Shown here: piece by piece, positions 7,191 through 39,300 of the stretch
How the letters are laid out: each line of letters opens with the position of its first letter
Position numbering within the stretch: the first letter of the stretch is position 1
NCBI GenBank assembly: GCA_051313645.2
Contig: JBNRSN020000018.1
Span: 18,538,001-18,602,000, forward strand
DNA length: 64,000 nucleotides
Source of the DNA: Centroscyllium fabricii
Taxonomy: Eukaryota
Direction of reading: 5' to 3'
The notes under the pieces: model-generated
The model's database searches: none
The model's input: only the letters and a program-made list of their open reading frames with translations
What the model was told of the DNA's origin: nothing
Made by a program: the position numbers and the translations under genes

Positions 7191-7366
7191 TTGCAAGAAG
7201 TCACACAACACCAGGTTATAGTCCAACAGTTTTATTTGAAATCACAAGCTTTCGGAGCGTTGCTCCGAAAGCTTGTGATTTCAAATAAAACTGTTGGACT
7301 ATAACCTGGTGTTGTGTGACTTCTTGCATTTGTCCACCCCAGTCCAACACCGGCACCTCCACATTA
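7191..7366. mobile_element. Penelope-like palindromic insertion (family A)
   Basis: Inverted arms centred near 7259; flanked by the GAA(G/A)GAATATTG duplication. Confidence 0.75.
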
Positions 7367-7861
7367 TGAAAGAATATTGGCGGTGGAGGTGAGCTTTTCC
7401 ATACGATTGGTATTCTAATGGAATTATCGCCCTAGTTTATTAAATAATCCGAGTCTAGGAGGACCCCCCCCCCCATCTCCTCTCCAGCTCTGCATGTCAG
7501 TTCCATAAAGGCAAAATCGACCAACCAGCGACCCCTGTGGAATCGGTGTGATTTAGAATCGGGTCTGTCAATAAATGGATTGTCACAATATGAGATTGTC
7601 TCCCCAAACAATCTGAGAATGGTTGGAGAGGTGGGTAGTGGGTGGGCGGGGGGCAACCAAACACAGGATGGGAGAAATTTAAAAAAGTTGAATTAAAAAG
7701 TTATGCTGCTGTTTCCATTCAAATGGGGGACAGTAATGTGTTCTTCTGTTAAAGCACTGAGCTTCCTGGCTGCTAAATATCTTTTTATCCCCAATTCCTC
7801 TCCCCACCCCCCCCCCCCCACCCCGTGACTTTAACACAACTATATTTAATATCAAATTAAC

Positions 7862-7997
7862 TTCTCTTTCACCTGAGGAAGGAGCTGCGCTCAGAAAGCT
7901 TGTGATTTCAAATCAAACTGTTGGACTATATAACCTGGTGGTTGTGTGACTTTGTGCATTTGTCCAGCCCAGTCCAACACCGGCACCTCCACATCAT
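7862..7997 (+). mobile_element. Penelope-like terminal repeat (family A) with hammerhead motif
   Basis: TCAC-CTGAGGA-AGGAGCTGCGCTCA-GAAA-GCTT-GTGA at 7869-7905, then the family body ending CACCTCCACATCAT. Confidence 0.75.
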
Positions 7998-9949
7998 ATA
8001 TTAATATTGGCCTGTCTGTGTTTGCATGAAATGACTTGACGTCGAGCAGTAGTTGCGGGCACGACCTGCCAAATCTCCTGAATCAGAGGCCAGCCTTGGA
8101 TTGCCAAACACCTCGCGGATGCTCCATGTAGATGAATTTGTCTCTCTGCACTTTATTCAAACACAATGAAGACTTTGCCATCTCAAAGATCAATTGCTTG
8201 GAAATAATTCTCACCGCGCTCTGCCTTTGTCTTAAGTACAAATAAGATCTCAAGTGTGAGGGGAAAGTGGGGGGCGGGGGGGTAGAGGCGGTGGGTGGAC
8301 GAGACGAGAGAGGCTGGGATTGAAAGCGGAGGCGAGGGGACCCAGAGGAAGATGTGCATCCAATCATTAACATTGCAAATATCATGCAAATCTATCACTG
8401 GCAAAGGGGGATGAAAATGCGGGTTAAATACGTGGAGCTAATTTAAAGAAAAACCTGCAATGATTATGTGGGAATAGATAATGTGTAAACATCTCTCCAG
8501 GATCGTATTTATATATACCGGGTGGGTGAATGTGTTTGTGTGTGGTTCTATGGTGATTCTGCTTCAGCATCACCTTGGAACCGCACAGACACCCAAACAT
8601 TAATGGAAATGGACAAGAATTCCTGAAGATGTTCATTGTTCCCTATTTTTTTGTTGTTGCCCCCCCCCTTCGTAAAGTCACTCGTGATGTTCGGGAAACC
8701 AGAACAGGGGACCTAAAATGTGGAGGGGGGGGGGGGGGGGTTGTCTCCGCGCAGATCAGATCTGCAAGCGCCACAACTAGAAACACGCAATTATTATGCA
8801 AATGCCAACGTTTAAATTTGCGTGGAGGTGCCGAAAATAAATGGCTAATTACGCAGAGGACGGGGTGATATAGGTTGTGCATCCCGATTGCTGTTGTTCT
8901 AGATTGCTTTACTGTTCAGCTTGAGCTTGGAGAGCGAACAGCGGCTTTTGTCTGCAAGGCCAATCAATCAGAGGAGAAATTCAGAACACGCGGTTTAAAA
9001 ATGTGTTTGTGGAAGAAAGCGGATACAGAGAGAGAGAGAAAAACCCGGAGACAGCATTTCTATAGGCGCTTGTCTCCCACATATGCAGTGCAAGGGGGGA
9101 AAACAGAGGTTCCTTAACAGGATCAATAGATTAACAAACAAAGAAACTGCCAAAGTGGCTGCCAATAATGCGACTGCAGACTTTTTTTTCCCCCCCTCTC
9201 TTCAATTTTTTTTTGGGTCAAAACCTATCTCGAGATGTTGCGTGTATTTTGACAATAATATGTTTCAGGATGATCGCCGGCGTCGTGCGAGATATATTTG
9301 CAAAAAAAAACACCCCAGCAAAGCAAGAATATACACACACAAGGCATCAAGATCATCCTCGTCCCATAATTAATCTTTTGCGCGGCTTGCTTTAGATTCG
9401 GGTGGTGTTTTAGGAATGTGAGAGTGTGATGATATTTGTGGAATGCTGAAAACCTCGCCTCCAAACCACCCGTTTAAACGGCTTGGCAATATAAACACCC
9501 GGGGAAAAGAAACTGTTTTGGAAGAATTGAGCTAACCCCTTTTTCCTAACAGGCAAAATTATTCGTGGGCGATCCAAACGCTTATGATAATTATCATTGT
9601 TTTAAAATAAATATTCCAGGCATGCGGTCTGAGGAAAATATCTGGCGGTGTTTTTTTGGGGAGGGGTAATGGGGAGGTGGGGGGGGGGGAGCGCGCAATT
9701 TCAGGTCGTTCTTGTTAATTTCAGGCTGGAAATTGACACACTAATTAAACAGCACTCGAACACTCAAAGGCAGCTTATTGGCCTTATCAGATCCACTATA
9801 TTTTCCCAATTAAAATCGAAAGGCATTGCCACTACCCCCTGGATGAAAAATAGGGGGCTTTACAACGGTGACCATCGCATTTTACATCAGATTCATTGTG
9901 ATGTATTAGATGCAATAAATTATCCAATGTAACAAAACACTGAAAGTTG

Positions 9950-10080
9950 AAAGGCTGATTATCTGTAGCGCAGAGATAAGGCTGCATTATTCCAGATCAT
10001 TATGAATCCGACGTTGGCGCTGACTCCTTTCTTAATCAGGCGTTCTTATCCTGGCTCCGTGAGCAGCACAGATAAGAACC
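9950..10080. promoter_or_regulatory. Candidate upstream GATA-site enhancer
   Basis: TATCTG-N8-AGATAA at 9960-9979, plus CTTATC near 10045 and AGATAAG near 10070. Confidence 0.4.
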
Positions 10081-12589: not shown

Positions 12590-13286
12590 GAAAAGTTTGC
12601 GTGTGAAAATCCAGGTAAAATGATGCAACGACAAAACAAAAATTGGACCCGTTTATTCCATTCATTAGTTCAATGGGAGGGAACCCATCTTGAGGCAGAG
12701 TTAGTGAGAGCTGTGTGTGAGAGGCTGTGGAGATCTGGAGATTGTAATATAACAGTCATATTAGATTCTGTAAAACGATCAATAGAACCGGCAAAGGCTT
12801 TTTTATTTCTGGGCATTTCAAACATTTCTATATCGCATTCGGAAATTGCTTTGTTAAAAAAAAAAGCAACACCAAGTCATTTGCATCAGAGAGATTACTC
12901 CTCCCTGACATCACCACCGCGCTTATAAAACGGGCATGTTTGTTTGCTGTTCTCTCGACACGAATAAAAGCATTTTGAAAAGAAGATTTTAATCGTCTTG
13001 TGTCGATGGTCATTCCCTCTCCCTGACCTGTGAGCCACCTTAACAACCCGGAAGAGAACTGGAGAGGCTGGCTTTAGGCGAGCAGACAGGGAGGGCTGAA
13101 TGAAGGGGTTTCGCTGGTTGAAGTAACGAGCTGGGCTTTCAGAGCACATCGCTCGTCTGTCTGTCACTCTGCAATAACTTTTGGGAGAGAGAGAGAGCGA
13201 GAGAGAGAGAGAGAGAGATCAGGGGAAAAAAATCCAACCCCAGCGAGCTGCCAGCACCAGGTTCCTCCACAACAAGAGCCGAAGAG
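12590..13286 (+). promoter_or_regulatory. Candidate distal promoter and non-coding exon (exon 1a-like)
   Basis: ATTTGCAT at 12879, TATAAAA at 12924-12930, GA-repeat leader, donor GAG|GTCAGT at 13287; about 11 kb upstream of the proximal promoter, similar to the mammalian two-promoter layout. Confidence 0.45.
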
Positions 13287-14274
13287 GTCAGTAAATATTT
13301 ATATTTTCTCAACATATCTTCTCCACGTGGAGCGGGGCCAGCCCCAAAGGCGCTCAATCGCAGGGGGGTGGGGGGGGGGAGTTAAATTAATAACAGTTCG
13401 GTCCTCACGTTAAATAAAGAATAATGCAGGATTAGTAAACCTTTGCTGTGGGCTGCAATCTTTTTCTAATGTCAAGCCGAATTTTGAAATGAAGCTACGC
13501 TCTGAAACCGATCAGAATCGATTTAACAGTTTGATCGGGAATGACTCGATATCAATTATTTGATATAATTCAAGCAAACGATGGTTTTTTTTTTCCCCCT
13601 CTGCGCCGGTTTGATTGGAATTTAGACACGATCCTGAAACATTAATAGAAATAACCTCCAAATGCCCATTCACGTGGGACAACGTGGCAAGCTGATCTCG
13701 GTATCATGTCAAAAAATAAAGAAGCATTTGAGTAAATTTGCCTGATGTGAAACTGATCGCGATGAATAGTGGTTCTGACCTTTAAATTAAATATAGTCAT
13801 AACTTAATTTCAGTCGCATCTTGGAAGATCCTTCCCTACGTTACAGCTGATCGCATCAATATCCACTCTGCAAAGACAGTGGGCATCGCACTGGGTGAAA
13901 TAATCAAAATTAATTCCTATTTGGTTATTATTACAACTGGTGGGGCTCCTTGGCAATGCAGCGGTCTGATCGGGTGTAGATATGCATACAATAAGCTAAC
14001 AATGTTTTATGGTGAGAGACTGATCGGACACTGTATCGGGTGGGGTGGGGGGGGGGGCGCTTTCTACTGTGTTGGAATGGAAACTCAATTAATGGACTTT
14101 GACGGGTGAGAGGGAGAGAGAGAGAGAGTTACAGGTGCAAACTGCAGGCTTTGAACTGCACAAAATATGAAATTGAGCCTGATTAACCCGGCCTGGAATG
14201 TAAAGGTGTCAGAGAACGATCTGAACGCGATGGGTATCGCTGCGAACCCTTTATTTCTTTAAGCCAGATGCTCA

Positions 14275-14402
14275 TTCACCTGACGAAGGGGCAAAAGCTC
14301 CGAAAGCTTGTGATTTAAAATAAAACTGTTGGACTATAATCTGGTGTTGTGTGACTTCTCGCATTTGTCCACCCCAGTCCAACACCGGCACCTCCACATT
14401 AT
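14275..14402 (+). mobile_element. Penelope-like terminal repeat (family A) with hammerhead motif
   Basis: Family body; AACCCTTTATTT duplicated on either side (about 14246 and 14403). Confidence 0.75.
14276..14313 (+). ncRNA. Minimal type I hammerhead ribozyme motif
   Basis: Stem I TCAC/GTGA, core CTGACGA, extra A, stem II GGGGC-AAAA-GCTCC, GAAA, palindromic AAGCTT stem III region. Confidence 0.6.
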
Positions 14403-15017
14403 AACCCTTTATTTAACAAACGAAATATTAATTTTACTCAAAGTGGATATGCTTAGCCCGATTATAACCTAAATATCGTAATTTCTATTTTTGCGAATGG
14501 GTATATTAGAATCCGGCACTGACTCAATCGATGTGGTGTATCGCAGAGGAATTTATTAACGGAATAAGGTTTTTTATTGGGGGGTGGGGGGGCGGAGAGA
14601 GCTTTGGGCAGGTATGTTGCACGGGTATGCTGACAGCAATGGTTCAACGCACCACGGTTGTGTCCGGGTGTCCTCCTTTCTGTTGGCAATGAAGCATTTG
14701 TGCTCAAGTTCTTTAAGGCGGTGAGTGATATTGGCTGCCCCCCCCAGATCTGTTGAACAGAATCGGCGAGGGGCAGAGTGTCACCCGGGAAGGTCGTGAT
14801 TTTAACAGTTTCTCTTCCAACAAAATACTGATCAATTTCATGTCAATTTCACTTTTTGCAGACAGGGGCTTCCTGTCTTCCCCTGGGTAGATCCATCAAC
14901 GGGAACATCTGTAAGTGGAGTGTGGATATGTTTATGTATATGCGTGTGTGTTATATGTGCATATATGTGTTTATTCGTGTTGATGTATATTTATGTGTGT
15001 GTGCATTTGTATATGTG

Positions 15018-15185
15018 TGATGTGGAGGTGCCGGTGTTGGACTGGGGTGGACAATTGCAAGAAGTCACACAACACCAGGTTATAGTCCAACAGTTTTATT
15101 TTAAATCACAAGCTTTCGGAGCGCTGCTCCCAATAAAGCTGTTGGACTAATATACACATGTATAACCTGGTGTTGTGTGACTTCC
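15018..15185 (-). mobile_element. Penelope-like insertion (family A), partly inverted
   Basis: GATGTGGAGGTGCCGGTGTTGGACTGGGG... followed by an inverted partial copy. Confidence 0.7.
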
Positions 15186-15456
15186 TACCTGTGTGTTTGC
15201 GAATACATGCATGTGCAATGTGTGTACATATATGTTTATACATATATGTGTGTGTTTATATGTGGAACTTTTAAAATGAATTCACTAAAGGTTGTAAATG
15301 TGAAGTGGTTCGGATGGAGGTGATGCACTTTGAACCTCTATCGGGGATTTGAATATCCCACTAGTTATCAATTTTAACATAATGTTGCCCATCTACCTGC
15401 TCCCTGTCTGGGGGGCAAAACTGATGGCCAGTCTTCGACATAGCATTGAAAGCCAT

Positions 15457-15638
15457 AATGTGGAGGTGCCGGTGTTGGACTGGGGTGGACAAATGCAAGA
15501 AGTCACACAACACCAGATTATAGTCCAACAGTTTTATTTGAAATCACAAGCTTTCGGAGCTTCTGCCCCTTCGTCAGGTGAAAGAGAGACTGACTTAAAG
15601 AACGCACATAATCTGGTGTTGTGTGGCTTCTTGCATTT
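15457..15638 (-). mobile_element. Penelope-like insertion (family A) with minus-strand hammerhead motif
   Basis: Motif at 15544-15581; TAG(C/T)ATTGAAAG duplicated at the flanks. Confidence 0.75.
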
Positions 15639-16151
15639 TAGTATTGAAAGGGCAGCGAATCACCTTGTCCCCGTGGATCCGGCTCTTAACCCTAGCACCA
15701 GAACGCATCTCATTGCTTTCAGTTTTACTCCGACTTTCGTCTTTTTTTTACATAAAGGACACGGTGGCCGCAATGTGAACCACTCCTCGAACCAGACAAA
15801 GGCGACCCGGCCTGTCTGATGCTATTTGTGGAGCTGCGATCTTGCTGTGGCGTGCAGATCAAAAAATAAGAGGGAAATGAGTGAACACGAACGTATACGC
15901 GGTGCTTCCTTTGAAATCAAACCTAGAACAGATAGCGATCAGTGCGCGGATTGAACTGGCAATGAAACCGCATTTCGTTTAAAACTGCGAAATGGGTCTT
16001 GTTGGGATGTTAAAACATGTCTTAGGAAACAGCAAACGGGTCGCATGGATGGGCCCCGTTGCCCCAGCGGGTCTTGTGAAACTTGACAGAGACGCCGACA
16101 GATAAAGAGCTATCTCATTAACCAGCTAAACTTTGCGATGGAACATGTTCC

Positions 16152-16625
16152 ATTCAATTCAATTCAATTCAAATTTTATTGTCATTGCAGAGTACTAGTA
16201 CAATACAGCGAGACGAAAACTCGACTCTCCCGAGAGTAGTGCAAAGAAAATAAATAAATTACATGCAAAATGCATACAGTAAAGTTCATTATCAGGCGTG
16301 CAGGTACCGAGTTTCTTTTTAGAGTTCAGGAGGCTGACAGCCCTGGGGAAGAAGCTGTTCTGAAATCTAGTCGTGCGGGTGCGAATTGCTCTGTAGCGTC
16401 TCCCGGAGGGCAGGGGGGCGAACAGACTGTGGCTGGGGTGTGTGGGGTCTTTAATAATGTTCAGAGACCTCCATAAGTAGCGTTTGAGGTAGATGCTTTC
16501 CATTGACGGTAGCTGTGTACTGGTAATTCGTTGGGCAGTTTTGACTACTGGCTGCAGGGTCTTCCTTGCCAGACAGTGATGCAGCTTGTCAGTATGCTTT
16601 CTATTGTGCAGCGGTAGAAGTTGGA
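16152..16625 (-). mobile_element. Rex1/Babar-like LINE 3' end
   Basis: Near-identical to 1561-1990; same ORF motif and (TTGAA)n tail. Confidence 0.8.
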
Positions 16626-17995: not shown

Positions 17996-18125
17996 NNNNN
18001 NNNNNNNNNNNNNNNNNNNNNNNNNNNNNNNNNNNNNNNNNNNNNNNNNNNNNNNNNNNNNNNNNNNNNNNNNNNNNNNNNNNNNNNNNNNNNNNNNNNN
18101 NNNNNNNNNNNNNNNNNNNNNNNNN
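17996..18125. other. Assembly gap (130 N)
   Basis: Run of N. Confidence 1.
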
Positions 18126-22711: not shown

Positions 22712-22870
22712 ATGATGTGGAGGTGCCGGTGTTGGACTGGGGTGGACAAATGCAAGAAGTCACACAACACCAGGTTATAGTCCAACAGTTTTATTTGAAA
22801 TCACAAGCTTTCGCAGCGCTGTGATTTCAAATAAAACTGTTGGACTATAACCTGGTGTTGTGTGACTTCT
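22712..22870. mobile_element. Penelope-like palindromic insertion (family A)
   Basis: Inverted arms; exact 11-bp duplication AATAAAGAAAC at about 22700 and 22871. Confidence 0.8.
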
Positions 22871-22921
22871 AATAAAGAAACAATCAGTCTCAGGATGGAC
22901 AGAATCTTTTAAAATATAATT

Positions 22922-23357
22922 TTGAGAATAAGGGGCTGCCCTTTCAAAACTGAGATGAGGAGGAATTTCTTCACTCGGAGGGTGCTGAGTCTGTGGAATT
23001 TGCTGCCTCAGAGAGCTGTGGAAGCTGGGACGTTAAATACATTTAAATTGGAGATAGACAGTTTCCCAGCTGACAGGGGGGGAGGGGGTGGTGGAATAAG
23101 GGGTTACGGGGAGTGGACGGCGAGTCTAAGTTCGGATCAGCCATGATCCTATGGATGTCAGAAGTCACACAACACCAGGTTATAGTCCAACAGTTCTATT
23201 TGAAATCTTGTGAACTCCGAAAGCTTGTGATTGCAAATCAAACTGTTGGGCGATAACCTGGTGTTGTGTGACTTCTGACATGGTCCTATTGAATGGTGGA
23301 GCAGACCCGAGGGGCCGTGTCCGTGTGGCCTATTCCTGCTGCTACTTATATTCTTAT
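22922..23357 (+). mobile_element. CR1 3' fragment interrupted by a family A palindrome (23154-23281)
   Basis: RIRGCPFKTEMRRNFF...; tail split with ATG(A/G)TCCTAT duplicated around the palindrome. Confidence 0.75.
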
Positions 23358-23362
23358 TATTG

Positions 23363-23700
23363 ATGATGTGGAGGTGCCGGTGTTGGACTGGGGGGGGGGG
23401 GGGGGGACAACAAATTGTAAGAAGTCACACAACACCAGGTTAGAGTCCAACAGTTTCATTTGAAATCTTGTGAACTCCGAAAGCTTGTGATTGTAGTCCA
23501 ACAGTTTTATTTGAAATCACAAACTTTCAGAGTTCAGAAGATTTCAAATGAAACTGTTGGGACTACAATCACAAACTTTCAGAGTTCAGAAGATTTCAAA
23601 TGAAACTGTTGGGACTACAATCACAAACTTTCAGAGTTCAGAAGATTTCAAATGAAACTGTTGGACTATAACCTGGTGTTGTGTGACTTCTTACAATTTG
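23363..23700. mobile_element. Penelope-like rearranged palindromic insertion (family A)
   Basis: Inverted arms with an internal ~54-bp tandem iteration; TTCTTATTATTG duplicated at the flanks; ends about 100 bp from the first CCAAT box. Confidence 0.75.
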
Positions 23701-23794
23701 TTCTTATTATTGCATTTTGTTTAAAATGTGCCTTTTTTTTATTGACTTTTTTTTGGGACGAACTTAATTGCGGAAGCGAATTGATTAGCGTTTG

Positions 23795-24120: not shown

Positions 24121-24121
24121 T

Positions 24122-24939: not shown

Positions 24940-25174
24940 ATGGAAGTTGACCAGCCCCGTTGGATGACTCACCATCACTCGGCCGTGTTAAATGGGCAGC
25001 ATCCCGACTCTCACCACCCCGGGCTCGGCCATGGCTACGTGGACACGGGGCCCTATCTCCCGTCCGACGAAGTGGATGTACTGTTCAACATCGACGGCCA
25101 AGCTAACCACGTTGCATCCTACTATGGAAACTCGGTCCGAGCAGCCGTGCAGAGATACCCGCCGCCCCACCATG
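24940..25174 (+). CDS. GATA3: GATA3 coding exon 1 (N-terminal transactivation region)
   Basis: ATG at 24940 reads [31 protein letters not shown]...[32 protein letters not shown], the GATA3 N-terminus; phase-1 donor G|GTAAGT at 25175; 235 nt. Confidence 0.96.
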
Positions 25175-26476
25175 GTAAGTAAGACTGTGAGGCGTCGTCG
25201 GTGGCTTTAAACATTCCCCCCACCCCGGGGGGGTGCATTCGCAGCTCGACAGATATTTATCCACATTTCAGAGAGGGAAACAACCCCCATAAGTGAAGTG
25301 AAATTAGATCTGATCAGACTGCCTTTATTTCGAATTTTGCTTTAAAAACTTTCCTGGAGGTTGGGGTGGGGGGGGGGGGGGGGGGAGTGCAAGCTAACTT
25401 ATATGGAACTTTTTTTTAAAAAAATGCCTTTTAAACTGTGTTCCAAGAAGGCAACGTTTTATTACTAACCAGGGAACAAAAGAAATTGCTTCCTCTTGCA
25501 ATTTCTGGTCTGAAATTGACATATTGTTCGAGACCTTGGACACTTGGGCCCTTTACTGCAAGCACTTCCCGGATGTACTAGGGAGGTGCTGTTTGGTGTG
25601 TCTCGAAACTATTAATTTTTTTTTAAAAACATTCATTTACGATGTCAATTGAAACCAGGTTTTCTAATCCGTTAGGGATTATTACATTCACCGCTGCCTG
25701 TCGCAAAGTTTGACATTTCAAAGCTTGACTGGACACTTGGTACATAACGCTCTCATTTTTTTTTTGTTGTGTGACCATTAGCAGCGTGGGCGTTCATTTT
25801 GTAACCTGTTGAATGCCTTTAAAAGCTGTCATTGGCGGTGCTTGTCCGTGACAGGTTTAGTGGCTGGCGGAGAAAGCTATATATATATTTGATCAACTGA
25901 AAGTACCTTTGTGGCCTTTGCATTTCCCCCTACCGCTTAGCGTTTATGTGGCACACGCACCGTAAAAGCAATTCTTACTTTTATCTACAAAAAAAACCCA
26001 CGTTAAATTTGTATCTAAAAAGATGTATCTGGATTGCCGTTGTAGGTTCCACCCTGCACGGTCCTTCCCATTAGTCTAACACACCATATCGACCGCAGTA
26101 CACATTATGCATAAAGAATGATATGTGGAGGGAATTGAATACTGTCCAACAAGCGTTTAATATTGTCCGAAAGGCAGAAAAAAAAACGCCTCTTAGCGTC
26201 AGCACATTATCCTTGATGAAAGTTTGGGAATATGGATAAAGATGAGCATAAACAATTAAAACAGGCAGCACCACTACCAAAAGGGGTTCATTTTAAGGTA
26301 AAAACTGAGTATCAGACTGCGAGTCTTAAGAATTTATATGATTTGAAATTTAAAAAAGTTTTACTGAGACTGGCATTGAGGCATCCATGTCAAGTACACT
26401 TGAAATACATTTCAGTAGGGATTTTGATGATGTGCTATGTTGTATACTGATCCACACCTTTATTTTGTCATTCTAG

Positions 26477-27016
26477 GGAGTCAGGTTTGCCGCCCTCCTC
26501 TGCTTCATGGCTCTCTGTCCTGGCTTGATGGAGGTAAAACCCTTACCTCTCATCACAATGCTTCTCCTTGGAATCTGAGTGCATTCAGCAAGGCTCCACT
26601 CCACCACAGCTCCCCGGGAGCGCTTTCCGTCTACCCTCCGTCCTCATCGGCATCCCTCTCGGCGGGACACTCCAGCCCTCACCTGTTCACTTTTCCCCCA
26701 ACCCCTCCCAAGGATGTCTCCCCAGACCCTACCATCTCCGCCTCTGGGCCCAGCAGCTCCAGCCGCCTGGAGGACAAGGAGTGCATCAAGTACCAGGTGT
26801 CCCTGGCTGAGGGCATGAAGTTGGAGACAGGATCCTCTCACCCCAGAAGCAGCATGTCATTAGGAGGGTGCTCCTCCTCAGCCCATCACCCTCTGGCCTC
26901 TTACCCACCTTATGTCCCTGAATACAGCTCCAGCCTCTTCCCATCTGGCAGCCTGCTAGGAGGATCTGCCCCAGGCTTTCCTTCCAAAGCAAGACCAAAA
27001 GCTCGTTCCAGCACAG
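26477..27016 (+). CDS. GATA3: GATA3 coding exon 2
   Basis: Acceptor TTCTAG| at 26471-26476; reads [21 protein letters not shown]...[17 protein letters not shown]...RPKARSST; donor G|GTAAGC at 27017; 540 nt, phases consistent. Confidence 0.96.
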
Positions 27017-29700
27017 GTAAGCATCACTCCATTCCTTACTAAACAAGGCATCGGGCACCAACCATGGTGTTGCTCACTGAAGCACCTGGAGGCACTGTGA
27101 AATCAAGGTTACTGTATGAAATTGATAATCTTACCTGTATATTTATCATCTAGATATCAGAAAGTAGACGCCCTTAGTCGGAATTCTGAAAGGAATTGTG
27201 AACTCGTCACAGCTCTTTGGGATAAACAAGTGTGTACCAGTGCACAAATAAACAGAATGCAATACTTTAGAAAGATTTACATTAAATAAGTAATTAAGAC
27301 ATTCTAGTCTGTATCCAATTTATTCAAGCAGTGCCTGCCATATACGCCACATTGAGTGCCATAAATGTCCAGATCGAACTTACTTTTGCATTAAACCCCA
27401 CTGTGAATTCTTTTTGAATTCAAATTGGTAATAAGTAAAACACATGTACTCACCAATAGGGGTTAGTGTTGGCTTATAATTAGAACTGAAGAACTGGGGC
27501 ATATTTGCAGTAATACATGCATCCTGTGATTATATCACGATTAGTAATACCGCTTGGAAAGGGACTTACATGGTTGAATTTGACGAGATGTCAAATCCTA
27601 ACACCCCACCCCTCCAAACACACATACACACAAACTGTAGCTGATGGGTGTACTTCAAAAGTACTTCATTGGCTGTCAAGTGCTTTGGGACATCCTGAGG
27701 TGGTGAACGGGCGCTATAGAAATGCAAGGCTTTTTCTATGTAAAAATACTAAACTAAACTCTATTGCAAAGCACTACAGTAATACGAAATGACAGCAAAC
27801 CTATCTTATATTGACACAGACTTCAAACCTAAACACTGGAAATAACCTATCTTGTCTTAATATCAAACCACCCCTCCCATTTCCTCCTTGAGCGCCACAG
27901 GTACAGTATAGTTCAGAGGTTGCTTATCAACCGTGGTAGTAGTTTAGATGTCAGTTTGATCCTACAACAACCTGAAGACCACGAAACAGAGGGAAACAGC
28001 AATTGTCTTTCCCATTAAACGTTGCACTTGGCAATGTAAAACTATACCCGGAGATTTGTAATCGCTGTTATTGTTGCATCTGAACTCAATTTAATCTAGT
28101 GCATGTTTCCCGATGAGAGCGATCCGACGAGTCTGATCCGATTTTTGGAGCTGTGTCGGCGGAGCGGTTAATAGGACTGGGACAAGCAGACTGGCCCTTT
28201 TCGGGTTTCTGTGTTTTAGTTAATCCAATTATTTTCAGACTGATGCACGCGACAGTTACATTGTTTATCCAGCGCCGTGAACTTTAATAGGTTCCGGATG
28301 CGGCAAGACACAGGCCAAACTGCAGAGCAGCCCAGAGAGAGAGAGAGACAGAGAGAGAAGAGGGGGTTGTACAGCTTCACAAGTTGTGCATGCTATCGGT
28401 GACTCAGTAAAGCCAGCGAGCCCGAGATTAGCTAGTCGGCAACATTGATCTAATTAATGCAAGTATTAATCATTGACAGTGTAGTAAACACAAGCATACA
28501 CATTTATTATCAACCGCCAATAAATACATTCCTTCATTAAGACCTCAATTTTATATATTAAGTAATTACAGGTTAGGTAATGGGTAAAGACAATCCACAA
28601 AATAACAGGGAAGTGGTTTCTCCGCTCAGCAATATTTATTTTGCAGTTATTTCTCTCATAAATGTGTCTGATTATGAATTTTTGTTGTTGCATTTTTTGT
28701 ATTTGCGTCTATATGTTGCGTGAATGGCGCTTCCAAAATATTCCGCCACAGTTATATTGTACATGTTGGTGGGATTACTGTGAGATTAATAGCTATTTGT
28801 GCGGCAGATCAGGTCCTAGGGCTAATTTATTGAAAATGACTTGCATCAGCTGGATTTCTACAAAGCTGTTCTTGTAGTGTTGCATGTGGCAGCAGACTAG
28901 GCGTAAGTTGATACACGCTAGGAGTGGGGGGGGGGGAGTTTAAAAATAGGTCATTTTTTTTTGTCGCTCTGCTGTGATGGTTTTTTTTTTTGACACACTT
29001 TATTTATGAGACTTTTTAATGCATAAGTTAGGTATTTGCGGTTTGGAAAAGCCCGAACCGACAGGAGGTTTGGCGCAACGCTATCCTCGCTTCCCCCCCC
29101 CCCCCTTTTTTTTCCATGTTAAAATTAAGAATGGATACCGGCCATTTAACGACGAAATATTTGGGAACCTGTTCTGGTTGAGAGGACGGGTGCCTTGCCC
29201 TCGAGTGTTGTTCGCCTCTATAGCGAGCATGTCAAACTGCAACTTTTGGAGAAAAAAAAAACGGTAGCTTTGTGGTTAGCGTGCGGATGCCTCCTCTCAA
29301 CTTATTTATTTCAATACTCTGTGCTAGCAGGCTCTTTAAAGATTCACCGCAATTTTGAGGAGCGACCAGGCTCGAACCGAAACAGTGAATTAGGGGGGCG
29401 GGTAGTTGAGGAGGGGGGCAAAAAGTGATTACAACTTCGAAGTTAAAGGTGGTAGGTAGTGCAGAGGGGGGAAAAATTGAAAGGGTGAACACATTCTGTA
29501 GTTGTGATGTTACCAGCTAACTATTAGTTTAATTCTTGCGGTTGTCACCGCGTACACTGCGCCAAACTGAACATACAAGTGTTGCCACACGAGACAATGG
29601 GACGTATTAGTTTCATTATCTCTCACCCCCTTCAAAAAATACACCTCTCCAGCATCAGGGCTGCTGCACTCCCCTTTCCAGCTCACTTTATTTTCAGTTG

Positions 29701-29871
29701 TGATGTGGAGGTGCCGCTGTTGGACTGGGGTGGACAATTGTAAGAAGTCACACAACACCAGGTTATAGTCCAACAGTTTGATTTGAAATCACAAGCTTTC
29801 GGACCGAAAGCTTATGATTTCAAATCAAACTGTTGGACTATAACCTGGTGTTGTGTGACTTCTTACAATTG
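29701..29871. mobile_element. Penelope-like palindromic insertion (family A)
   Basis: Inverted arms centred on TTTCGGACCGAAA near 29803. Confidence 0.75.
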
Positions 29872-31276
29872 TCAGCTGGAGACAGTGTTTATTGATAGTC
29901 CCTAAACCGGCGACTTCTTGGCTTGTTTTTTTGTGACGTTCTGCTCAGTCGACCTCTGAGCTGGGGGGCCGAATTTTTGGATTTGTGAAACTGATATTAC
30001 TTTGAGTTTGAAGACAGCACGGGCTCCGAATCAGTCAGGATTGATCACAATACCCCTCTCCCACCCCACCCCCCCTTTTTTTTATTGTTTATTAAAAAAT
30101 CTAATGCACAAAAGTCCCTTTTAATGTGTGAGTCTTCTTCAGACTGGCATACAGAATAAATGAGCAATGCATTGACCCTTCCCCTTCTGTTTTTTCAGGG
30201 GATCGCGAAAAAATACTTCGTGACTGTAAATTGCACCATATGGAAGTTGACCGATCAAGCTGTAGTGAACTGGGGATATGTGCATTCGACATTTTAATAG
30301 GTGTGCAACTTTATGTAGGTCAGGACATTGTCCAGTATGTGGCATATGATTGTCAAAAAAAAGATGTCAACTGTGAACAGCTAGGAGTGCTCACGTAGTC
30401 ATTACCAATAGATGATGTGTATTTGTTTTGCTCTACTGATGGAGACAGCCAGCCTTAGCACAGTTGACACTTTTGCATCTAGAAATTAAAATTTTTGTAG
30501 TGTCCATGGCAATTTAATTGAAAACTGTAAAATGTACAATTATCCATTGTTTTAAGTTTGTGTATGTGTGTGTGTGTGTATGTATGTGCATCAGTCATAT
30601 TTTAAAGTTATTTATCAATCTGTTTACGCTGCCAGTATACAGCAGGCTGACTCTTGTGGAGCTGATCCGAAGTTGGCAAATATATAAATGGGAAATAGTC
30701 TTTCTAAAACTTTTTTTTTTTGTCCATTTATGTGAACCCACCAGTGCATGTAAATGACTCGTTTCGTTATCTGTTGGCCCTCCAATAAACATCGACCATT
30801 AAAGTTTCGTAATAACCTTTGGCTGGCGTTTACAAATAGCTTTAACAAGATATCCTAACCTCCAAGTTAAAGACTGCACTCAGCCTAATGCAATTGTGTT
30901 CCCACCGCACCGCAAATATTTTCCTAAAAAGTGAGTTAGCACACACTTGATCGTACGTCGATGTCCTCTGTGGCGCCATGCACATTATGTAGAAATTAAA
31001 TAAAGGATCATTTTAAAGAGCACTGAAATGCACTAACCATCATAAGTAATGCTAAAGCATTTTCACATGTACTTTTACAATGTGATGTACTGAAAGATAA
31101 ACGAAAGCAAAGGGCCCTGCAAAAATATAAAGGAAAAACAACTGTGTGATTCTGCCTGTGTAGCAGAAGCACATTATATATGAGCAAAATGTGCCAAAGC
31201 ATTCTAGCTACCTCAGCCTGGGTTACAGAGGTACCTTTGAGAGTGGACGATTCCACACTTGGCTTCCAATATTATA

Positions 31277-31510
31277 CGATGTGGAGGTGCCGGTGTTGGA
31301 CTGAGGTGGATAAATGCAAGAAGTCACACAACACCAGGTTATAGTCCAACAGTTTTATTTGAAATCACAAGCTTTCGGAGCGCAGCTCCTTCCTCAGGTG
31401 AAGTGACCAGGTCACTTCACCTGAGGAAGGAGCTGCGCTCCGAAAGCTTGTGATTTCAAATAAAACTGTTGGACTATAACCTGGTGTTGTGTGACTTCTT
31501 ACATTTGTCC
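31277..31510. mobile_element. Penelope-like palindrome with two back-to-back hammerhead motifs
   Basis: Centre GTGACCAGGTCAC at 31403-31415; motif on - strand 31365-31402 and on + strand 31417-31453; TCCAATATTATA duplicated at the flanks. Confidence 0.8.
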
Positions 31511-32013
31511 AATATTATAACACAACCTTTAATGTTTTACAACTCTAATCCTCAAAATCGGTCATTATGCCTACCCAACTGCATCCATTTGTACAGTCCA
31601 TATTTGTGAAGTAAAACATATCTGCATTGCAGGCAGGCCTGTAGACAGGTCCAATAGTAATTCTACCCACACTATCTATAAATACATACAGTCAACGGTA
31701 CATTCAGATATAGTACTCAGGCAATTGTTGACGTTGTTTAACTGGGGTGTACATACCTAGCTCTACTAATATAGACAATATTCCTGCATGGAAATAAATA
31801 ATCAGGCTTGGTTTCCGAATGCAGCCACTTGGGTCTCTGCACGTACACTGTAAGGCAGTGTTGTCCACTCGAAATTGTTGTCCAGGTGCAGGTCTGGCTA
31901 TGGAGACACCATCGCCACACGTACTAATTTTATTAGTTTTATTAAATGTAATTAATTTTATTAGGGGGATCAGATTTCTCTCTCCCTTCCATATGTGCGT
32001 TCTTTAAATCAAC

Positions 32014-32150
32014 CTCTCTTTCACCTGACGAAGGGGCAGACGCTCCGAAAGCTTGTGATTTCAAATAAAACTGTTGGGACTATAACCTGGTGTTGTGTGA
32101 CTTCTTGCAATTGTCCACCCCAGTCCAACACCTACCGGCACCTCCACATC
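32014..32150 (+). mobile_element. Penelope-like terminal repeat (family A), single arm
   Basis: Family body with an intact motif at 32021-32058. Confidence 0.75.
32021..32058 (+). ncRNA. Minimal type I hammerhead ribozyme motif, sense to GATA3 pre-mRNA
   Basis: TCAC-CTGACGA-A-GGGGC-AGAC-GCTCC-GAAA-GC-TT-GTGA. Confidence 0.6.
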
Positions 32151-32632
32151 GTAATTTTATTAGAAAACACCTTAATGCACTCACACAATACAAGTGATTG
32201 CACCTCCACATGTGTGTGTTTACTTAACAAGAATCTGCCACCATTCAGTAACCAAGGAAGTAAAGCACTCACAAGGGTGAAAAAAGAAACACATTTGCTT
32301 TCAAGTCTTTTAACCAACAAACGCTCAGAAAGGTTAACGCACACAGGCAGGGGATGAGTATTGAGATCACATGGCCAAGAACGCTGTCTATTATGCACGT
32401 TTTTGGTTGCTAATCAGAAAGGCAATTAGCCACTTCTAGATTTCCAATCAGCCACATGTGGCTAAGTGGTTAATGCATTTTTTTTTTGGAGAGCACTCGC
32501 TGCAACACGGCACCGGTGCAGCGAGTGCAGCAATGCATGGGCCCGGCTTGCACGTGGAATGATTCACCTCCTGAAGGGGTGGCGCGTTGAGGGTGTCTGG
32601 AAGTGACTGACTGGCTTGTGATTTTGTTTCAG

Positions 32633-32778
32633 AAGGTCGAGAATGCGTGAACTGTGGAGCCACCTCGACCCCCCTGTGGAGGAGAGACGGCACAGGCCAC
32701 TATCTGTGCAATGCTTGCGGTCTGTATCACAAAATGAACGGCCAGAACCGACCCCTCATCAAACCCAAGCGGAGATTG
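32633..32778 (+). CDS. GATA3: GATA3 coding exon 3 (N-terminal GATA zinc finger)
   Basis: Acceptor TTTCAG|AAG; [49 protein letters not shown] (C-X2-C-X17-C-X2-C); donor |GTACGT at 32779; 146 nt. Confidence 0.97.
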
Positions 32779-33485
32779 GTACGTAGCAGGGGATCAAATG
32801 ATCAAACAGCAGGTTTTCATTTCCTGATCTGAGTAAGATTTTTTTTTTGGGGGGGTGGTGGGTTTGCGGAAATTGACACGACACCTCGAGTACTGCAACC
32901 AGTTCTTCAAATGTCTTGGAAGGAAAGGCGACTGCCGATCGACGCGGGTATTTCTAGTATTTTTCTGACACCCAGAAACGAGAAAGAACAATATAACACG
33001 TCTTGTTTTTTTTGAACGCATTCAACGCCTTTTTCATGGTCAGAAGCTGCAACTTCTCACCGAAGACATCGGAAGTTCAAATGGAAATTACATCGGTGTA
33101 AAATAATAATAATAATAATAATAATAAAGTCCATTTGAAATCTTAGCAAGCAATACGTTCCTTCAGTGACATTTTTAATCGCACTCTGACTTCCTGAATG
33201 GCTCACAGAAAATGTACTTGTTGGTTTTCCGTTGTCAGTGTTGGAGGTTGGCTATTTCTTTACGTCATTGAGTGGGACCCGGTTCGAACCCTTTTTACAT
33301 ATTGTACAACCCACTTTAGGCACGCCATGTCCTCCTTCCATTTTAAACCGATATAATGCAGTCTGTCTGAATGACCGACCCTTGTTTGCTTTTCACAAAC
33401 CAGCCCAAAACCCCATTTGACAGGCCTTCCCTTCCCCCCAGAGCCTCGTGGAAACGCTGCTGTCACCTCAGCCATCAATACCCGT

Positions 33486-34025
33486 TAAGAAGTCAAATGC
33501 AAGAAGTCACACAACAAACACCAGATTATAGTCCCAACGGTTTTATTTTAAATCACAAGCTTTCGGAGCTTCTGCTCCTTCCTCAGGTGAAAGAGACTGA
33601 CGTTAAGAAGTCACACAACAAACACCAGGTTATAGTCCCAACAGTTTTATTTGAAATCGCAAGCTTTCGGAGCGTTGCTGCTTGGCCAGGTGAAGTGGGG
33701 AGATGCTGTGTTTATTTACGTGCCTCTCTCTACTTCACCTGAGCAACGCTCCGAAAGCTTGTGATTTCAACTAAAACTGTTGGGACTATAACCTGGTGTT
33801 GCGTGTATTCTTGCATTTGTCCACCCCAGTCCAACACCGGCACCTCCCCATCATCAATATCTGTAAGAAGTCACACAACACCAGATTATAGTCCAACGGT
33901 TTTATTTTAAATCACAAGCTTTCGAAAGCTTGTGATTTAAAATAAAATTGTTGGACTATAATCTGGTGTTGTGTGACTTCTTGCATTTGTCCACCCCAGT
34001 CCAACACCGGCAGCTCCACATCATC
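33486..34025. mobile_element. Cluster of tandem and inverted Penelope-like family A arms
   Basis: At least five arms in mixed orientation; CATCAATA(C/T)C(C/T)GT recurs at about 33473, 33852 and 34022. Confidence 0.75.
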
Positions 34026-34034
34026 AATATCTGT

Positions 34035-34168
34035 GTCATCGACCTGAAACGTTAACTCTGTCTCTCTCTCTCTCTCTCTCTCCACCGATGCTGCCTGGCC
34101 TGCTGAGCCTCTCCAGCGTTTTGTGTTGTTGTTTGGGACTTTCCAGCATCCGCAGTATTTTGCTTTCG
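34035..34168 (+). mobile_element. Penelope-like terminal repeat (family B), partial
   Basis: GTCATCGACCTGAAACGTTAACTCTG...GATGCTGCCTGGCCTGCTGAG; same family as 62395 and 63040. Confidence 0.6.
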
Positions 34169-34639
34169 CGATATCTGTGAATCGTTCACCCTACAATTGG
34201 CGAGGGATATATCACCGGTAGCCTCTTTAGCCCCGTCTTCATTGGAACCTGGCTTATTCTGGCTTTTAATATGTCACTAGTTTGCCAGAGCCCTTGTTCA
34301 GACCGCCCTGCTGCCCCCTGGAAATAAAAAATAAATAAAGTTGATTATAATTTGTTGCGGATCAATCAGGGTGCATTTTCTGTTGTTGTATCAGTTGTAT
34401 TCCCTTGTCCAAACCATCCCGCTCCCAGGGCACTCCTTCATCCGCTTGTGAAAATGTTGAATCTAATGACTGACCCCCTAATGGAATTCCAATCTTTCAC
34501 AGCCTCGTTAGGATCGGAAAACTTTCGAGGGAGGGAAATGTTTGCAGTGCATTTATTTGGCAGCGGGTCTCCCCTTTCTTCCTGTTCTCCCCCCCACCCC
34601 CCACCCCCAGCCGCCTCCCCTACTCTCTAATGTAAAAAG

Positions 34640-34720
34640 CTGAACTTCCTTTGCAAAGGCGGCCGGATATCTGCCGGCTCCAGATAACTGCTTTCTACAA
34701 CAACATCGCTTCCCGACCTC
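34640..34720 (+). promoter_or_regulatory. Candidate intronic enhancer core (ETS + TATCTG-N8-AGATAA)
   Basis: ACTTCCT at 34644-34650; TATCTG 34668-34673, 8-bp spacer, AGATAA 34682-34687. Confidence 0.45.
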
Positions 34721-35195
34721 AAAACACACAACGGTGTTTGAACAAGAAATCGGGAGGAGGGAGTGGGAGTGTGTGTGGGAGGAGGAGGGGGGGGGGGGGG
34801 GGTGGAACGATTAAAGTTTGGTGTAGAGAGTTTCGGGTGACTGTCTAAACAGGATCAGCTCGCAGTCTATGTCATCAGGAGAAAACTATGTGTGCCACCC
34901 GATTAGTCCGGACTGTTCTCTGTACTCACAGGACAATAACACGTATTGAGAGTTATTCAATCCAGGAGTCGTTTGAATTGTGTCGATTTGTTTTTTTAAT
35001 TAAATTGGACCAGCGCACGTCCTAAAAAAAATATTTTCGCATTCTGTTCCTGGGAAAAGGAAACTGGGAATCGGCTAGCAGCACCGGGAAAATCAGGGCT
35101 TAAACTAACGAAACTTTATATTATAGCTGGACTCCTTGAGTATTAGAAATATACCAAGAATTTCAGCCCCATCCCAGGCTCGCTGTCCAAAGAGA

Positions 35196-35690
35196 CATAG
35201 AAACATAGAAGATAGGAGGAATAGGCCATTCGGCCCCTCGAGCCTGTTCCACCATTTAATGAGATCATGGCTGATCATCCAAACCCAGCACCCTGTCCCT
35301 GCCTTCTCCCCATATCCCTCGATCTCTATCGAGCCTGCTCCGCCATTCAATGAGATTATAACTGATCTTCCAGACCCAGCACCCTGTCCCTGCCTTCTCC
35401 CCATATCCCTCGATCTCTATCGAGCCTGCTCCGCCATTCAATGAGATTATAACTGATCTTCCAGACCCAGCACCCTGTCCCTGCCTTCTCCCCATATCCC
35501 TTGATCCCTATCGAGCCTGCTCCGCCATTCAATGAGATTATAACTGATCATCCAGACCCAGCACCCTGTCCCTGCCTTCTCCCCATATCCCTTGATCCCT
35601 ATCGAGCCTGCTCCGCCATTCAATGAGATTATAACTGATCTTCCAGACCCAGCACCCTGTCCCTGCCTTCTCCCCATATCCCTCGATCCC
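35196..35690 (-). repeat. Tandem 91-bp iterations of a CR1/SINE tail (5 units)
   Basis: GAGCCTG anchor at 35240, 35331, 35422, 35513 and 35604. Confidence 0.9.
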
Positions 35691-36785
35691 TTCAGACATC
35701 AACCATTCTCCTGCCTCAACGTATGCCTTTGTATTCCGTTAATAGAGCACAATTTTCTTTTGGAAGATGTTCTATACAATGAACTGCTTGCCAAAGAATT
35801 GAAGGATTTTTGTAGAATGTTTTTTTTATCCCGATTGGGATTGCAGGGCTATGGGAAGAGAGAGGGGGGGGGAGTGGGACTGACTGGATCGCTCTTCGAA
35901 AGAGCTGGCACAGACTCGATGGGCCGAATGGCCTCCTTGTGTGCTGTACTGTTCTATGATTCTGTAATTAACAAATTGATTCGGTTTAAACAAACAATTT
36001 AAGAGCCAATTTTTAAGCAAGGTTGACATTCTTGCATATATAAAAGAAAAAGCAAGCAAAACAAAATGTAGCATTTACAAATCTTAAGTTCAGTCCTTCC
36101 CCTGCAATTGTTTAATGATTTGTGGAACATTTGACAGGCTATGCTTTAATCAGTTTCTGTTCACTTGCCTGGCTGTTACTCATCCATTTTAGTTGGGGGG
36201 GGGGGGGGGTTGTAAGAGCATCAAAGTGACTACAGGTAACATTTGTGCTGATTTCATTTTCGATGGGTTTAGGCTTCAATGAACTCGATCTTTATCCGAC
36301 GATCTATTCACCATGTACAGTAGAGACAGCGGACGTACAGTCAATCATCGCTTGTGTCTGCATTCCCAAGACAGTTAAAAAAAAAAAGCCTCCTGTATAA
36401 TACATAAATTTTAGAAAAATAAAATTCAAAAGCACAGAAGGAAGTTGAATCTCTATAGCGCCTTTGATGACCTCAGGTAGTCCCAAAGCATTGACAGCCA
36501 ACCAAGTGCCTTTGTTGCAATGTAGAAAATGATTGGATTGGATTGGATTCGCTTTATTGTCATTACACAGTACAAGTAAAATGCAACGAAATTAGGTGTG
36601 TCCACATTGAGTTTAAAAAGGTCCTGCACCTTTGGGGGGGGGGGGGGGGGGGACATTCCAATGATCCAAAAGGACTGTGCATTAGATTTATAAAGTGGCG
36701 AGATGAAGCACAATATATTGATCTGCACTCAATCCTTGTGACTTTGCTTGAATAGACAGATTTTGTGCCTGGTCTTTTTTTTTAA

Positions 36786-37100
<315 letters not shown>

Positions 37101-37107
37101 TAATATA

Positions 37108-37235
37108 TGATGTGGAGGTGCCGGTGTTGGACTGGGGTGGACAAATGCAAGAAGTCACACAACACCAGGTTATAGTCCAACAGCTTTATTTGAAATCACA
37201 AGCTTTCGGAGCGTAGTTCCTCAGGTGAAGTGAAG
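37108..37235 (-). mobile_element. Penelope-like repeat (family A), possibly extending to ~37380
   Basis: Family body with a damaged motif (GGAGCGTAGTTCCTCAGGTGAA). Confidence 0.7.
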
Positions 37236-37676
37236 AGATGCATATAGGCACAGAATATATAGTCAGAGAACAATGCTAGATGATTACAGGTAATCTTTCC
37301 AACTGCCCTTTATCACACCTCGGCAGAGAGATAATCACCGCAATCAAAGGTGTAAATGGTGTCCAAACAGGTCAGTCAGCAAAACATTCCATCAAAGAAC
37401 AATGAGGTGGGGTCACAAGGGGTCACGTTAACATAGACCCTGCACAGGTACGACGGGCAGAACGGCCTCCTTCTGTGCCATGATTTAAAAAAGTTGTCAT
37501 TTTTAACAGGAAGGACTAGAGCGGATGGTTTGTGGATTAAAGATGGCTTAAAACAAATAGGCGCACCTCGCACGTATTCTGACTGCAGCTAACGTGTGAA
37601 ACTGATTCAAATTAGAATTGTTGAGATGAAACAATCAGCATAAACCGGCAATGAAGAGTTACTTGAAATATAACCA

Positions 37677-37820
37677 TGATGTGGAGGTGCCAGCGTTGGG
37701 CTGGGGAGGACAAATGCAAGAAGTCACACAGCACCAGGTTACAGCGGCGCTCCGAAAGCTTGTGATTTCTAATAAAGCTGTTGGACTACAACCTGGTGTT
37801 TGTGTGACTTCTTGCATTTC
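37677..37820. mobile_element. Degraded Penelope-like palindrome (family A)
   Basis: Inverted arms; AAATATA at both flanks. Confidence 0.65.
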
Positions 37821-39078
37821 AAATATAGCTGATAGAGAAAGCCAACGTTAGGAAGAAGCGGGACTCCCCACAAACACACGCCAACAAGTTAGCCATCGGT
37901 AGTGCGTTGATGCTGGGCAACACGGTGAGATAACATTTGAATTTAACAAGTTAATCGCCTCCCCCCCACACACAAAGAAAGTAGGAGACTGTCGAGATAA
38001 TTTCAAGTGAAGAAAACAGAAATGGAATGGGCTGAGCGGCCGATATCTGTGCTTGTAAACTAAAGGTGTAGGAGACTTGAGCGACCAGAAAGGTTTGTTC
38101 TGTTGAGCTGTCGGGGCTGAAGAGTTAACGATCCCGTGAGGTCAAAGCAAGTTAAATAAGACCCGGAGTTTCGCTGTGACACAGTCGTTCATTGAAAGAG
38201 GCGAGAGGGGGGTGGGTGGGGGAAATGACCCCGGCAAAGCTATAATAAATACATGGTATATAAATCTATTACTATGTAAATTAATCCGGGGGGGACAAAT
38301 GATGTGCGTTTGGTCAAACTTTTGCTGGGTCTGATTGCAGACAGCAATGTTGTGAAATAAATTCGGCGAGTCAAAGTAGGTAACTGATTCTGAAAGTGAA
38401 ATTGAAGGCGATTCAGTTGTAAATGAGATGGAATTGAATGTGCGGCCCAATGTAATTGACTTGAATTGGTTAACCTGTTAATATGTGGCGCCCGGGCACT
38501 CTTCATCAAATTCTGTGGAGTGAAGGTTGACAAAAGGGCGAAATCATTAAGTGCACGGTGCGAATTGCAAGCCAGACCTTTTTGGGTTGTGTCCTCCCCC
38601 CGCTCCCCTGAAATGTGCCGAGGAGGCGGGGCGGGCTGTGTGGGAGAGACCACCTCTGTTGTCAGTTTATTGGGGAGGATTTAGAGGCTGTGGTCGTTGT
38701 CACGTGAGTGGCGCCAGTCTAATTCAATCAATTAATCCTTACGGTGCATCAGTGTGGGCAGACTTCCTCTGGTGTGCATTTCTCTGGCTGCTGCCAATAA
38801 ACTTTAGCCCACAGGCTCTCGGGTCTTGTTTGTTGATTTAGGCTCTGCCCATCTCTGTCCAGTCTTATTATTAGCAAGTTTACAAGAATGTCTCAAAGTG
38901 TTACATTTGAAGAAAGATAATGACTAGCCTCTAGAACTCCTAAGAGTTCAAATAGTTGCATTGGGCTTTGCATCGCTCTGGATCTTTGATGTATTTGCCA
39001 GTAATTTTAAACAGGTATTGCACACGATCTCTAACTGCCTATTCCCACATCAGCAACCTCTGTTGAACAAACATTTAT

Positions 39079-39300
39079 TTGCAAGAAGTCACACAACACC
39101 AGGTAATAGTCCAACAGTTTTATTTTAAATCACAAGCTTTCGGAGCGCTGCCCCTTCTTCGTCGGGTGAAGTGAAGTTGATTCCAGGGGCAGACGCTCTG
39201 AAAGCTTGTGATTTAAAATAAAACTGTTGGACTATAACCTGGTGTTGTGTGACTTCTTGCATTTGTCCACCCCAGTCCAACACCGGCACCTCCACATCAT
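39079..39300. mobile_element. Penelope-like palindrome (family A)
   Basis: Inverted arms; TGAACAAACATTT duplicated at about 39064 and 39300. Confidence 0.8.

Follow-up and report, generated by a model that had tools for sequence, protein, structure and literature searches.

What kind of element leaves one short repeat, bearing a hammerhead ribozyme motif and mostly arranged as head-to-head inverted pairs, at many sites around a single developmental gene? The question is raised by the GATA3 locus of the shark Centroscyllium fabricii, contained in a 64,000-nt stretch of contig JBNRSN020000018.1 (positions 18,538,001 to 18,602,000; hereafter the window, whose own numbering is used throughout). 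An earlier note on this DNA described about 15 insertions of one repeat, mostly head-to-head, and interpreted them as a non-autonomous family derived from Penelope-like elements (PLEs) that leaves ribozyme and hairpin cassettes in a developmental gene. Arm pieces were located by a blastn search of the window with the longest arms, which revealed 33 pieces in 15 clusters, all within 7192-39298 and none elsewhere in the 64 kb. The cluster at 33494-34021 comprises three nested insertions, bringing the total to 17, namely 12 inverted pairs, in which the 5′ ends of the arms meet, and 5 solo arms; the count and the prevailing orientation given previously are thus borne out. We consider it probable, at roughly 0.8, that the 17 inserts are 5′-truncated copies of a PLE terminal repeat (pLTR). 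They were probably dead on arrival, and as a class truncated PLE terminal-repeat insertions are known biology.

Outer ends, target sites and abundance of the insertions

The outer 3′ ends of the arms display a bimodal distribution, in which 15 arms have the same full 3′ end and 14 finish before it. Exactly one arm is short, by 29-42 nt, in 11 of the 12 pairs, and the pair at 23156 is short on both arms. Judged by comparison with described elements, this one-arm shortening, which the earlier note missed, constitutes the PLE “tail” signature and is the decisive pattern of the locus. PLE copies are described as truncated at the 5′ side, next to a likewise truncated copy in inverted orientation, and as extended by 30-40 bp at one of their ends (PMC8557442). 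Head-to-head inverted pLTRs with palindromic junctions, an optional 31-bp tail and solo pLTRs have also been reported, together with 8-10 bp duplications at pLTR pairs in rotifer examples, and self-priming was proposed (PMC3846280). The purified anole Poseidon protein cuts and extends both target strands at AT-rich sites, two adjacent reverse transcriptase (RT) start sites defining the tail and uncleaved RNA being the main substrate (PMC11167929). In the window, an inverted 5′-truncated copy adjoins the 5′ end in 12 of 17 insertions. Since 26 arm pieces span the predicted ribozyme cut site, the templates of those pieces were uncut. Ribozyme cleavage as the event that sets the 5′ ends was rejected, in view of these spanning pieces and because the predicted cut is the starting point of only 1 of 24 paired arms; one junction, found in two inserts, starts 2 nt downstream of the cut.

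Target sites were compared with random pairs of sites. Duplications with at most one mismatch, most of them 12 nt long, reach a score of at least 9 at 10 of the 15 sites, against 0.5% of 1500 random site pairs, a null that favours the test because insert edges were set by hand and the edge at 31937 was informed by an empty-site contig. The duplication is doubtful or lacking at the other 5 sites. All four duplications quoted in the earlier note lie at insert edges (22699/22870, 31265/31508, 39064/39300 and 23351/23701). The flanks of the insertions are 68% AT compared with a background of 56%, and 0 of 5000 random sets were as high. Independently of the duplications, mobility is shown by the absence of the 31937..32151 insertion from the orthologous site in organism E, where position 31926 is joined to 32154 in one 3256-nt contig (run X12, depth 15), a call that rests on this single contig, in which the letters between the joined points are not known.

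The architecture, comprising hammerhead, tail, AT-rich targets and duplications of about 12 nt, provides strong support for a PLE origin. The inserts resemble endonuclease-bearing (EN+) PLE insertion units (Penelope/Poseidon and Neptune), as characterised in the passages cited above, in having head-to-head inverted arms of which one may bear a tail, truncated 5′ ends, junctions that are palindromic or formed through microhomology, short duplications of AT-rich sequence, pLTRs occurring alone, integration into earlier copies and a hammerhead within the repeat. They differ in that every shark copy consists of the pLTR only, with no linked open reading frame (ORF), and in that the duplications are about 12 nt rather than 8-10 bp.

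The repeat family is very abundant in several organisms, represented by four shark-related runs. Contigs lying on a 421-nt stretch numbered 30,532 in X1, 6,279 in X5, 2,424 in X12 and 3,320 in X17, counts that do not equate to copy number and that include some contigs on a second repeat at about 32210-32290, and the summed depth is orders of magnitude greater over the arm than over the unique flank. Because the family is so abundant, GATA3 is unlikely to be a special target, and the special link to a developmental gene drawn previously is not upheld. A separate, moderately repeated element lies immediately to the right of the 32025 arm (32150-32299) and is present in all four runs.

The hammerhead motif and the search for a parent element

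The reference motif is a minimal type I hammerhead on the plus strand at 32021..32058, with a 4-bp helix I (32021-24/32055-58), a core at 32025-31, an extra A at 32032, a 5-bp helix II (32033-37/32042-46) that includes G10.1-C11.1, GAAA at 32047-50 and a palindromic, loopless helix III (32050-53). The cut is predicted after 32054 (U17). This anatomy, palindromic stem III included, is as the earlier note described it. Core and five-pair helix II are intact in 6 of the 33 arm pieces (14280+, 15577-, 31397-, 31421+, 32025+ and 33586-), the hammerhead is damaged in 5 (7873+, 33690-, 33740+, 37224- and 39165-), and the remainder are truncated. Minimal hammerheads of metazoan PLEs, as presented in PMC4209133, similarly display a 4-bp helix I, an extra base separating position 9 from 10.1, G10.1-C11.1, a palindromic 15.2-16.2 and no loop 3, and dual motifs on opposite strands, about 100-700 bp apart, were noted there. 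In contrast, helix II comprises 5 bp here and 7-8 bp in Schistosoma, and position 17 is U here.

A loose core pattern occurs 14 times in the window against 5.8 expected (0 of 100 shuffles); nine of the matches belong to this family and two to a second one. The latter is an older repeat family, likewise carrying a minimal hammerhead, with copies at 34035-34151 (+), 62390-62489 (+), 63037-63143 (-) and 606-658 (-), the last represented by its 3′ part only. In the palindrome of its helix III the two middle bases are exchanged, and the copy at 34035 starts inside helix II and abuts a first-family cluster. When two second-family copies (62400+ and 63134-) are included, 6 of 11 pairs are doubly changed, among them the helix III palindrome, a count that ignores relatedness and assumes, without proof, that the two families are homologous. 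Across both families 95.5% of 88 cells are paired, and none of the ten core positions listed varies. Among 40 of 72 contig variants listed, those within the core and helix II affect only N7, a loop base and C11.1.

Several observations weigh against the reading as truncated pLTR copies. Within the family, changes in helix II are one-sided (G-U/A-U), double changes appearing only in comparison with the second family, and none of the 34 Rfam matches obtained with E values of up to 5 was a hammerhead. Hammerhead motifs devoid of helix III are expected to escape Rfam models. None of the copies extends into coding sequence, an outcome that is equally expected from a non-autonomous master. GIY-YIG matches were lacking among the 264 ORFs of at least 70 aa in the window, and Pfam RVT_1 matched three (57624-58105 on the minus strand and 60669-60953 on the plus strand), all LINE-type fragments with GVPQG motifs, which we take to be CR1. 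The earlier statement that the window holds no RT or GIY-YIG ORF is therefore correct for GIY-YIG, but RT fragments of LINE type are present at 57-61 kb. A DNA-pattern search for the parent gave 0 loci in viral contigs, metagenomes and prokaryote genomes, and searches with the peptide read in the frame of the 3′ ATG returned 0 matches, the peptide searches being weak negatives because their queries were short. One archaeal locus (L001) returned by the pattern search displayed no similarity beyond the pattern and was rejected as a chance match; sub-threshold Rfam matches of the palindromes to miRNA hairpins were likewise set aside as generic hairpins. Formal PLE membership is unproven, since no parent carrying RT plus GIY-YIG has been linked to the repeat; contigs of the runs end within the repeat itself. 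The derivation from PLEs claimed earlier hence stands at the level of architecture (hammerhead, tail and duplications). A literature search outside Dfam, Repbase and subscription papers found nothing specific on a shark PLE hammerhead family or on helix II junctions, and the family may well be catalogued in Repbase or Dfam already.

The start points of the arms vary between about 60 nt upstream and about 56 nt downstream of the core, and the element reaches 25 nt or more beyond the upstream limit of the longest copy, as revealed by consensus loose ends upstream of 31964 in runs X1 and X5. Three of the copies in the window have ATGG at their end, a good start context, and 20 contigs of run X17, possibly an RNA data set, run on beyond the 3′ end; their consensus opens with ATG, although the agreement is only 0.45. 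The upstream loose ends, the ATGG ends and the continuation in X17 are hints of a longer parent. The upstream segment 31965-32014, which belongs to one subfamily, is covered only in X1 and X5, not in X12 or X17. Just 5′ of this segment the loose ends carry a splice-donor-like motif, and a pyrimidine tract followed by AG precedes the hammerhead, possibly marking a short pLTR intron of the kind found in other PLEs.

Inversion junctions and the origin of the mirror arm

As 11 different junctions were observed among the 12 pairs, the inversion is normally made anew at each insertion. Arms within a pair share 7 derived variants over 569 columns, compared with a between-pair rate of 0.0011 per column, a level of sharing reached in 0 of 20000 permutations, and both arms therefore usually derive from one template. 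We infer that this common origin reflects cDNA fold-back, twin priming on one multi-pLTR RNA or later conversion. Against it stand 21 unshared differences, 15 of which fall in three pairs (23160, 33605 and 37679; 4-6 each), and a mismatch between the helix II loops of the two arms at 39080, so that not all pairs come from one template.

On inspection, eight of the 11 independent junctions have a breakpoint inside helix II or at its border, or seven when the edge case at 33862 is left aside. For 7 of 11, p lies between 0.002 and 0.02 according to the assumed range, a value to be read as a hint only, since the test interval was picked post hoc and truncation is naturally skewed, which a uniform null does not take into account. 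The centre of insert 7192 is an exact helix II hairpin whose loop (7259-7261) is complementary to a variant found in another loop of the window, the product expected from cDNA snap-back, and in the pair at 15020 the first arm stops at the foot of the helix. Inserts 23156 and 23363 have one common inversion junction and separate duplications, which suggests that the palindrome was copied again, or that a local duplication occurred. It is conceivable, if on balance doubtful, that helix II and not catalysis is the switch point at which the Penelope inverted repeat is built, and that finished palindromes are transcribed and re-inserted as units. RT would then stall at or just past the GC-rich helix II, and the cDNA would fold onto the helix's own complement and prime the mirror arm.

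If the inserts are truncated pLTR copies, insertion would be carried out by a GIY-YIG/RT protein encoded by the parent, which would nick the two strands of AT-rich DNA at a spacing of about 12 nt. Reverse transcription would proceed on mostly uncleaved RNA from one or the other of two start sites separated by about 30-40 nt, which would produce the full and the tail-less ends, and would abort after 50-190 nt, often at hammerhead helix II. The second, inverted arm, usually copied from the same template, could arise through fold-back or be primed from the opposite target strand, and would be joined to the target via short microhomology. The ribozyme would act as a dimer in tandem transcripts of the parent, whereas in the stumps it would mostly be truncated or buried in a hairpin.

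The alternative that survives best is the view of the earlier note, a dedicated non-autonomous PLE-derived master, either a solo pLTR or a transcribed palindrome, mobilised in trans. Such a master would account for arms of no more than 190 nt and the lack of any coding remnant in all 17 inserts, for the lineage restriction of the 31965-32014 segment and for the junction common to 23156 and 23363, and non-autonomous PLE derivatives have been described (bioRxiv 10.64898/2026.07.22.740005; PMC8557442). We nevertheless regard it as unlikely, though deserving of attention, because the junctions are diverse, because the variable 5′ ends and the continuation of the element upstream in other genomes fit ordinary 5′ truncation, because the X17 contigs run past the 3′ end as if into an ORF, and because the copies are not tandem retrozyme arrays; a non-autonomous family as such is left unsupported. 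Non-LTR retrozymes, as outlined in bioRxiv 10.64898/2026.07.22.740005, resemble the shark repeat in being ORF-less and pLTR-related and in carrying a type I hammerhead, and are reported in a chondrichthyan genome. They are head-to-tail tandem units with at least two same-strand ribozymes, whereas the shark inserts are head-to-head or solo and variably truncated, and no head-to-tail tandem array of complete hammerheads was found among the 17 insertions.

Far less probable is an origin as DNA-transposon miniature inverted-repeat transposable elements (MITEs), or through DNA-level hairpin rearrangement after insertion of a single arm, for although inverted arms with target duplications are MITE-like, common arm variants could stem from DNA fold-back or conversion and the 23363 insert carries a re-inversion and slippage, the outer ends are asymmetric owing to the tail and are not terminal inverted repeats, the inner ends vary, solo arms have duplications of their own, a hammerhead lies within the repeat, and the duplications enclose both arms, so that the inversion dates from insertion.

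Individual insertions and their possible consequences for GATA3

The host gene is shark GATA3, the exon at 26461-27015 being 95% identical to Pristiophorus and 93% identical to Scyliorhinus GATA-3. Coding exons on the plus strand extend over 24940-25191, 26476-27021, 32629-32790, 36816-36950 and 49229-49594, giving a gene span of 24940..49594. Eight of the 15 insertion sites lie 5′ of the start codon and seven in introns.

Upstream of the gene, the first insertion is a head-to-head pair (7192..7367) formed by a tail-less minus arm (7192-7258) and a full plus arm (7262-7367), with an exact helix II hairpin as junction and a 12-nt duplication (7182/7368) containing 1 mismatch. Two solo full arms on the plus strand follow, one at 7853..7996, in which the basal helix II pair of the hammerhead is broken and the duplication doubtful, and one at 14255..14402, with an intact hammerhead (core at 14280) and a perfect 12-nt duplication (14245/14403). 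A pair lying in a TG-rich tract (15018..15184) lacks a clear duplication; its plus arm is short and interrupted, and its minus arm stops at the base of helix II. At 15455..15638, a long minus arm with an intact hammerhead (15577) is joined through microhomology to a 31-nt tail-less plus arm, within a 12-nt duplication containing 1 mismatch. Read in antisense, the arm has one frame free of stop codons over its full length (15334-15819, plus strand), without a Pfam match and probably incidentally. The pair at 22712..22870 combines a full minus arm with a tail-less plus arm beginning at the predicted cut site and has a 12-nt duplication, while that at 23156..23278, with both arms tail-less, sits within another repeat and is flanked by an 11-nt duplication with 1 mismatch. 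Last before the gene is a complex pair (23363..23701) with a re-inverted junction, 52-nt internal repeats and a 12-nt duplication.

Within GATA3, the intron following exon 26476-27021 contains a pair at 29700..29873, with its junction in the 3′ strand of helix II and a doubtful duplication. A near-perfect palindrome at 31277..31511, flanked by a 12-nt duplication, displays an intact hammerhead on each strand (31397- and 31421+) and folds as a single hairpin of -192.5 kcal/mol. The longest solo arm (31937..32151, plus strand), in which element sequence begins at about 31965, has a 12-nt duplication at 31925/32152. The nested cluster comprises a solo tail-less minus arm at 33495..33600, with an intact hammerhead (33586) and a 12-nt duplication (33483/33601), placed at the end of an older copy; a pair at 33605..33853, with two damaged hammerheads and arms that differ; and, at the 3′ end of the latter, a pair at 33862..34023, with its junction at the end of helix II and a duplication of at least 10 nt. 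One target motif is present three times across 33473-34035, which hosts the three nested insertions and a second-family copy and represents a hotspot of reuse. The remaining insertions are a solo full minus arm with a helix II deletion and no clear duplication (37108..37236), a pair of a short full-ended minus arm and a longer tail-less plus arm starting in helix II (37676..37819), and a pair with unlike helix II loops in its two arms, flanked by a perfect 13-nt duplication (39078..39299).

All 15 sites thus fall within 32 of the 64 kb, around the 5′ part of GATA3, with none at 40-64 kb (post hoc p about 5e-4). Repeated use of the same targets contributes in part to this confinement. A shared 3′-end or SINE-like repeat, with many copies accompanied by LINE fragments, is denser at 35-64 kb, and the hammerhead family is absent past 39.3 kb. 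A 91-bp unit of the SINE-like repeat forms 4-5 tandem copies at 35238-35691. Decayed LINE-type RT and 3′ ORF fragments lie at 57624-58466 (-), 60669-61673 (+), 42630-43037 (-) and 56747-57139 (-). GC-rich 32-bp minisatellite arrays occupy 44783-45100 and 48142-49207 in the last GATA3 intron, with a related unit near 52850. A long imperfect hairpin at 55963-56141, not of the hammerhead family and with sub-threshold Rfam miRNA matches, is possibly a MITE, and a 130-nt assembly gap (17996-18125) falls within a CA-rich microsatellite.

The density of sites around the 5′ part of GATA3 could be taken to favour cis-regulatory cassettes selected for acting on GATA3 RNA through pre-mRNA cleavage, double-stranded RNA or small RNA. 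The pairs are computed to fold into hairpins of -66 to -193 kcal/mol, and the GATA3 pre-mRNA contains two intact sense cores, 31421 and 32025 only, 604 nt apart in one intron. Such selection is nonetheless very hard to credit. The 31421 core is fully paired within its hairpin, no intact ribozyme is present in 27 of the 33 arm pieces, organism E does not have the 32025 copy, and the copy number is very high in the four runs. Ribozymes of this kind need a same-strand dimer, as stated in PMC6765202, which head-to-head arms cannot supply because their two ribozymes lie on opposite strands. The computed double-hammerhead fold is not favoured (-19.9 against -20.8 kcal/mol for two monomers). Minimal hammerheads of PLEs are described as cleaving poorly or needing protein (PMC11167929, PMC4209133), and 1 of 9 Xenopus dimers tested is reported to have cleaved (bioRxiv 10.64898/2026.07.22.740005). 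The cassettes envisaged in the earlier note are hence mostly long hairpins without an intact ribozyme, and GATA3 carries a load of intronic hairpins of 50-118 bp for which there is no evidence of function.

The value of the locus lies elsewhere, in a dense natural record of PLE integration intermediates. If helix II is indeed the switch point, the long-unexplained head-to-head structure of PLEs would acquire a concrete mechanism that can be counted across a genome. The abundance of the family would let a shark assembly show where inversions start, whether the arms were copied from one template and whether helix II is a hotspot, and would so bear on the question of self-priming versus twin-priming.

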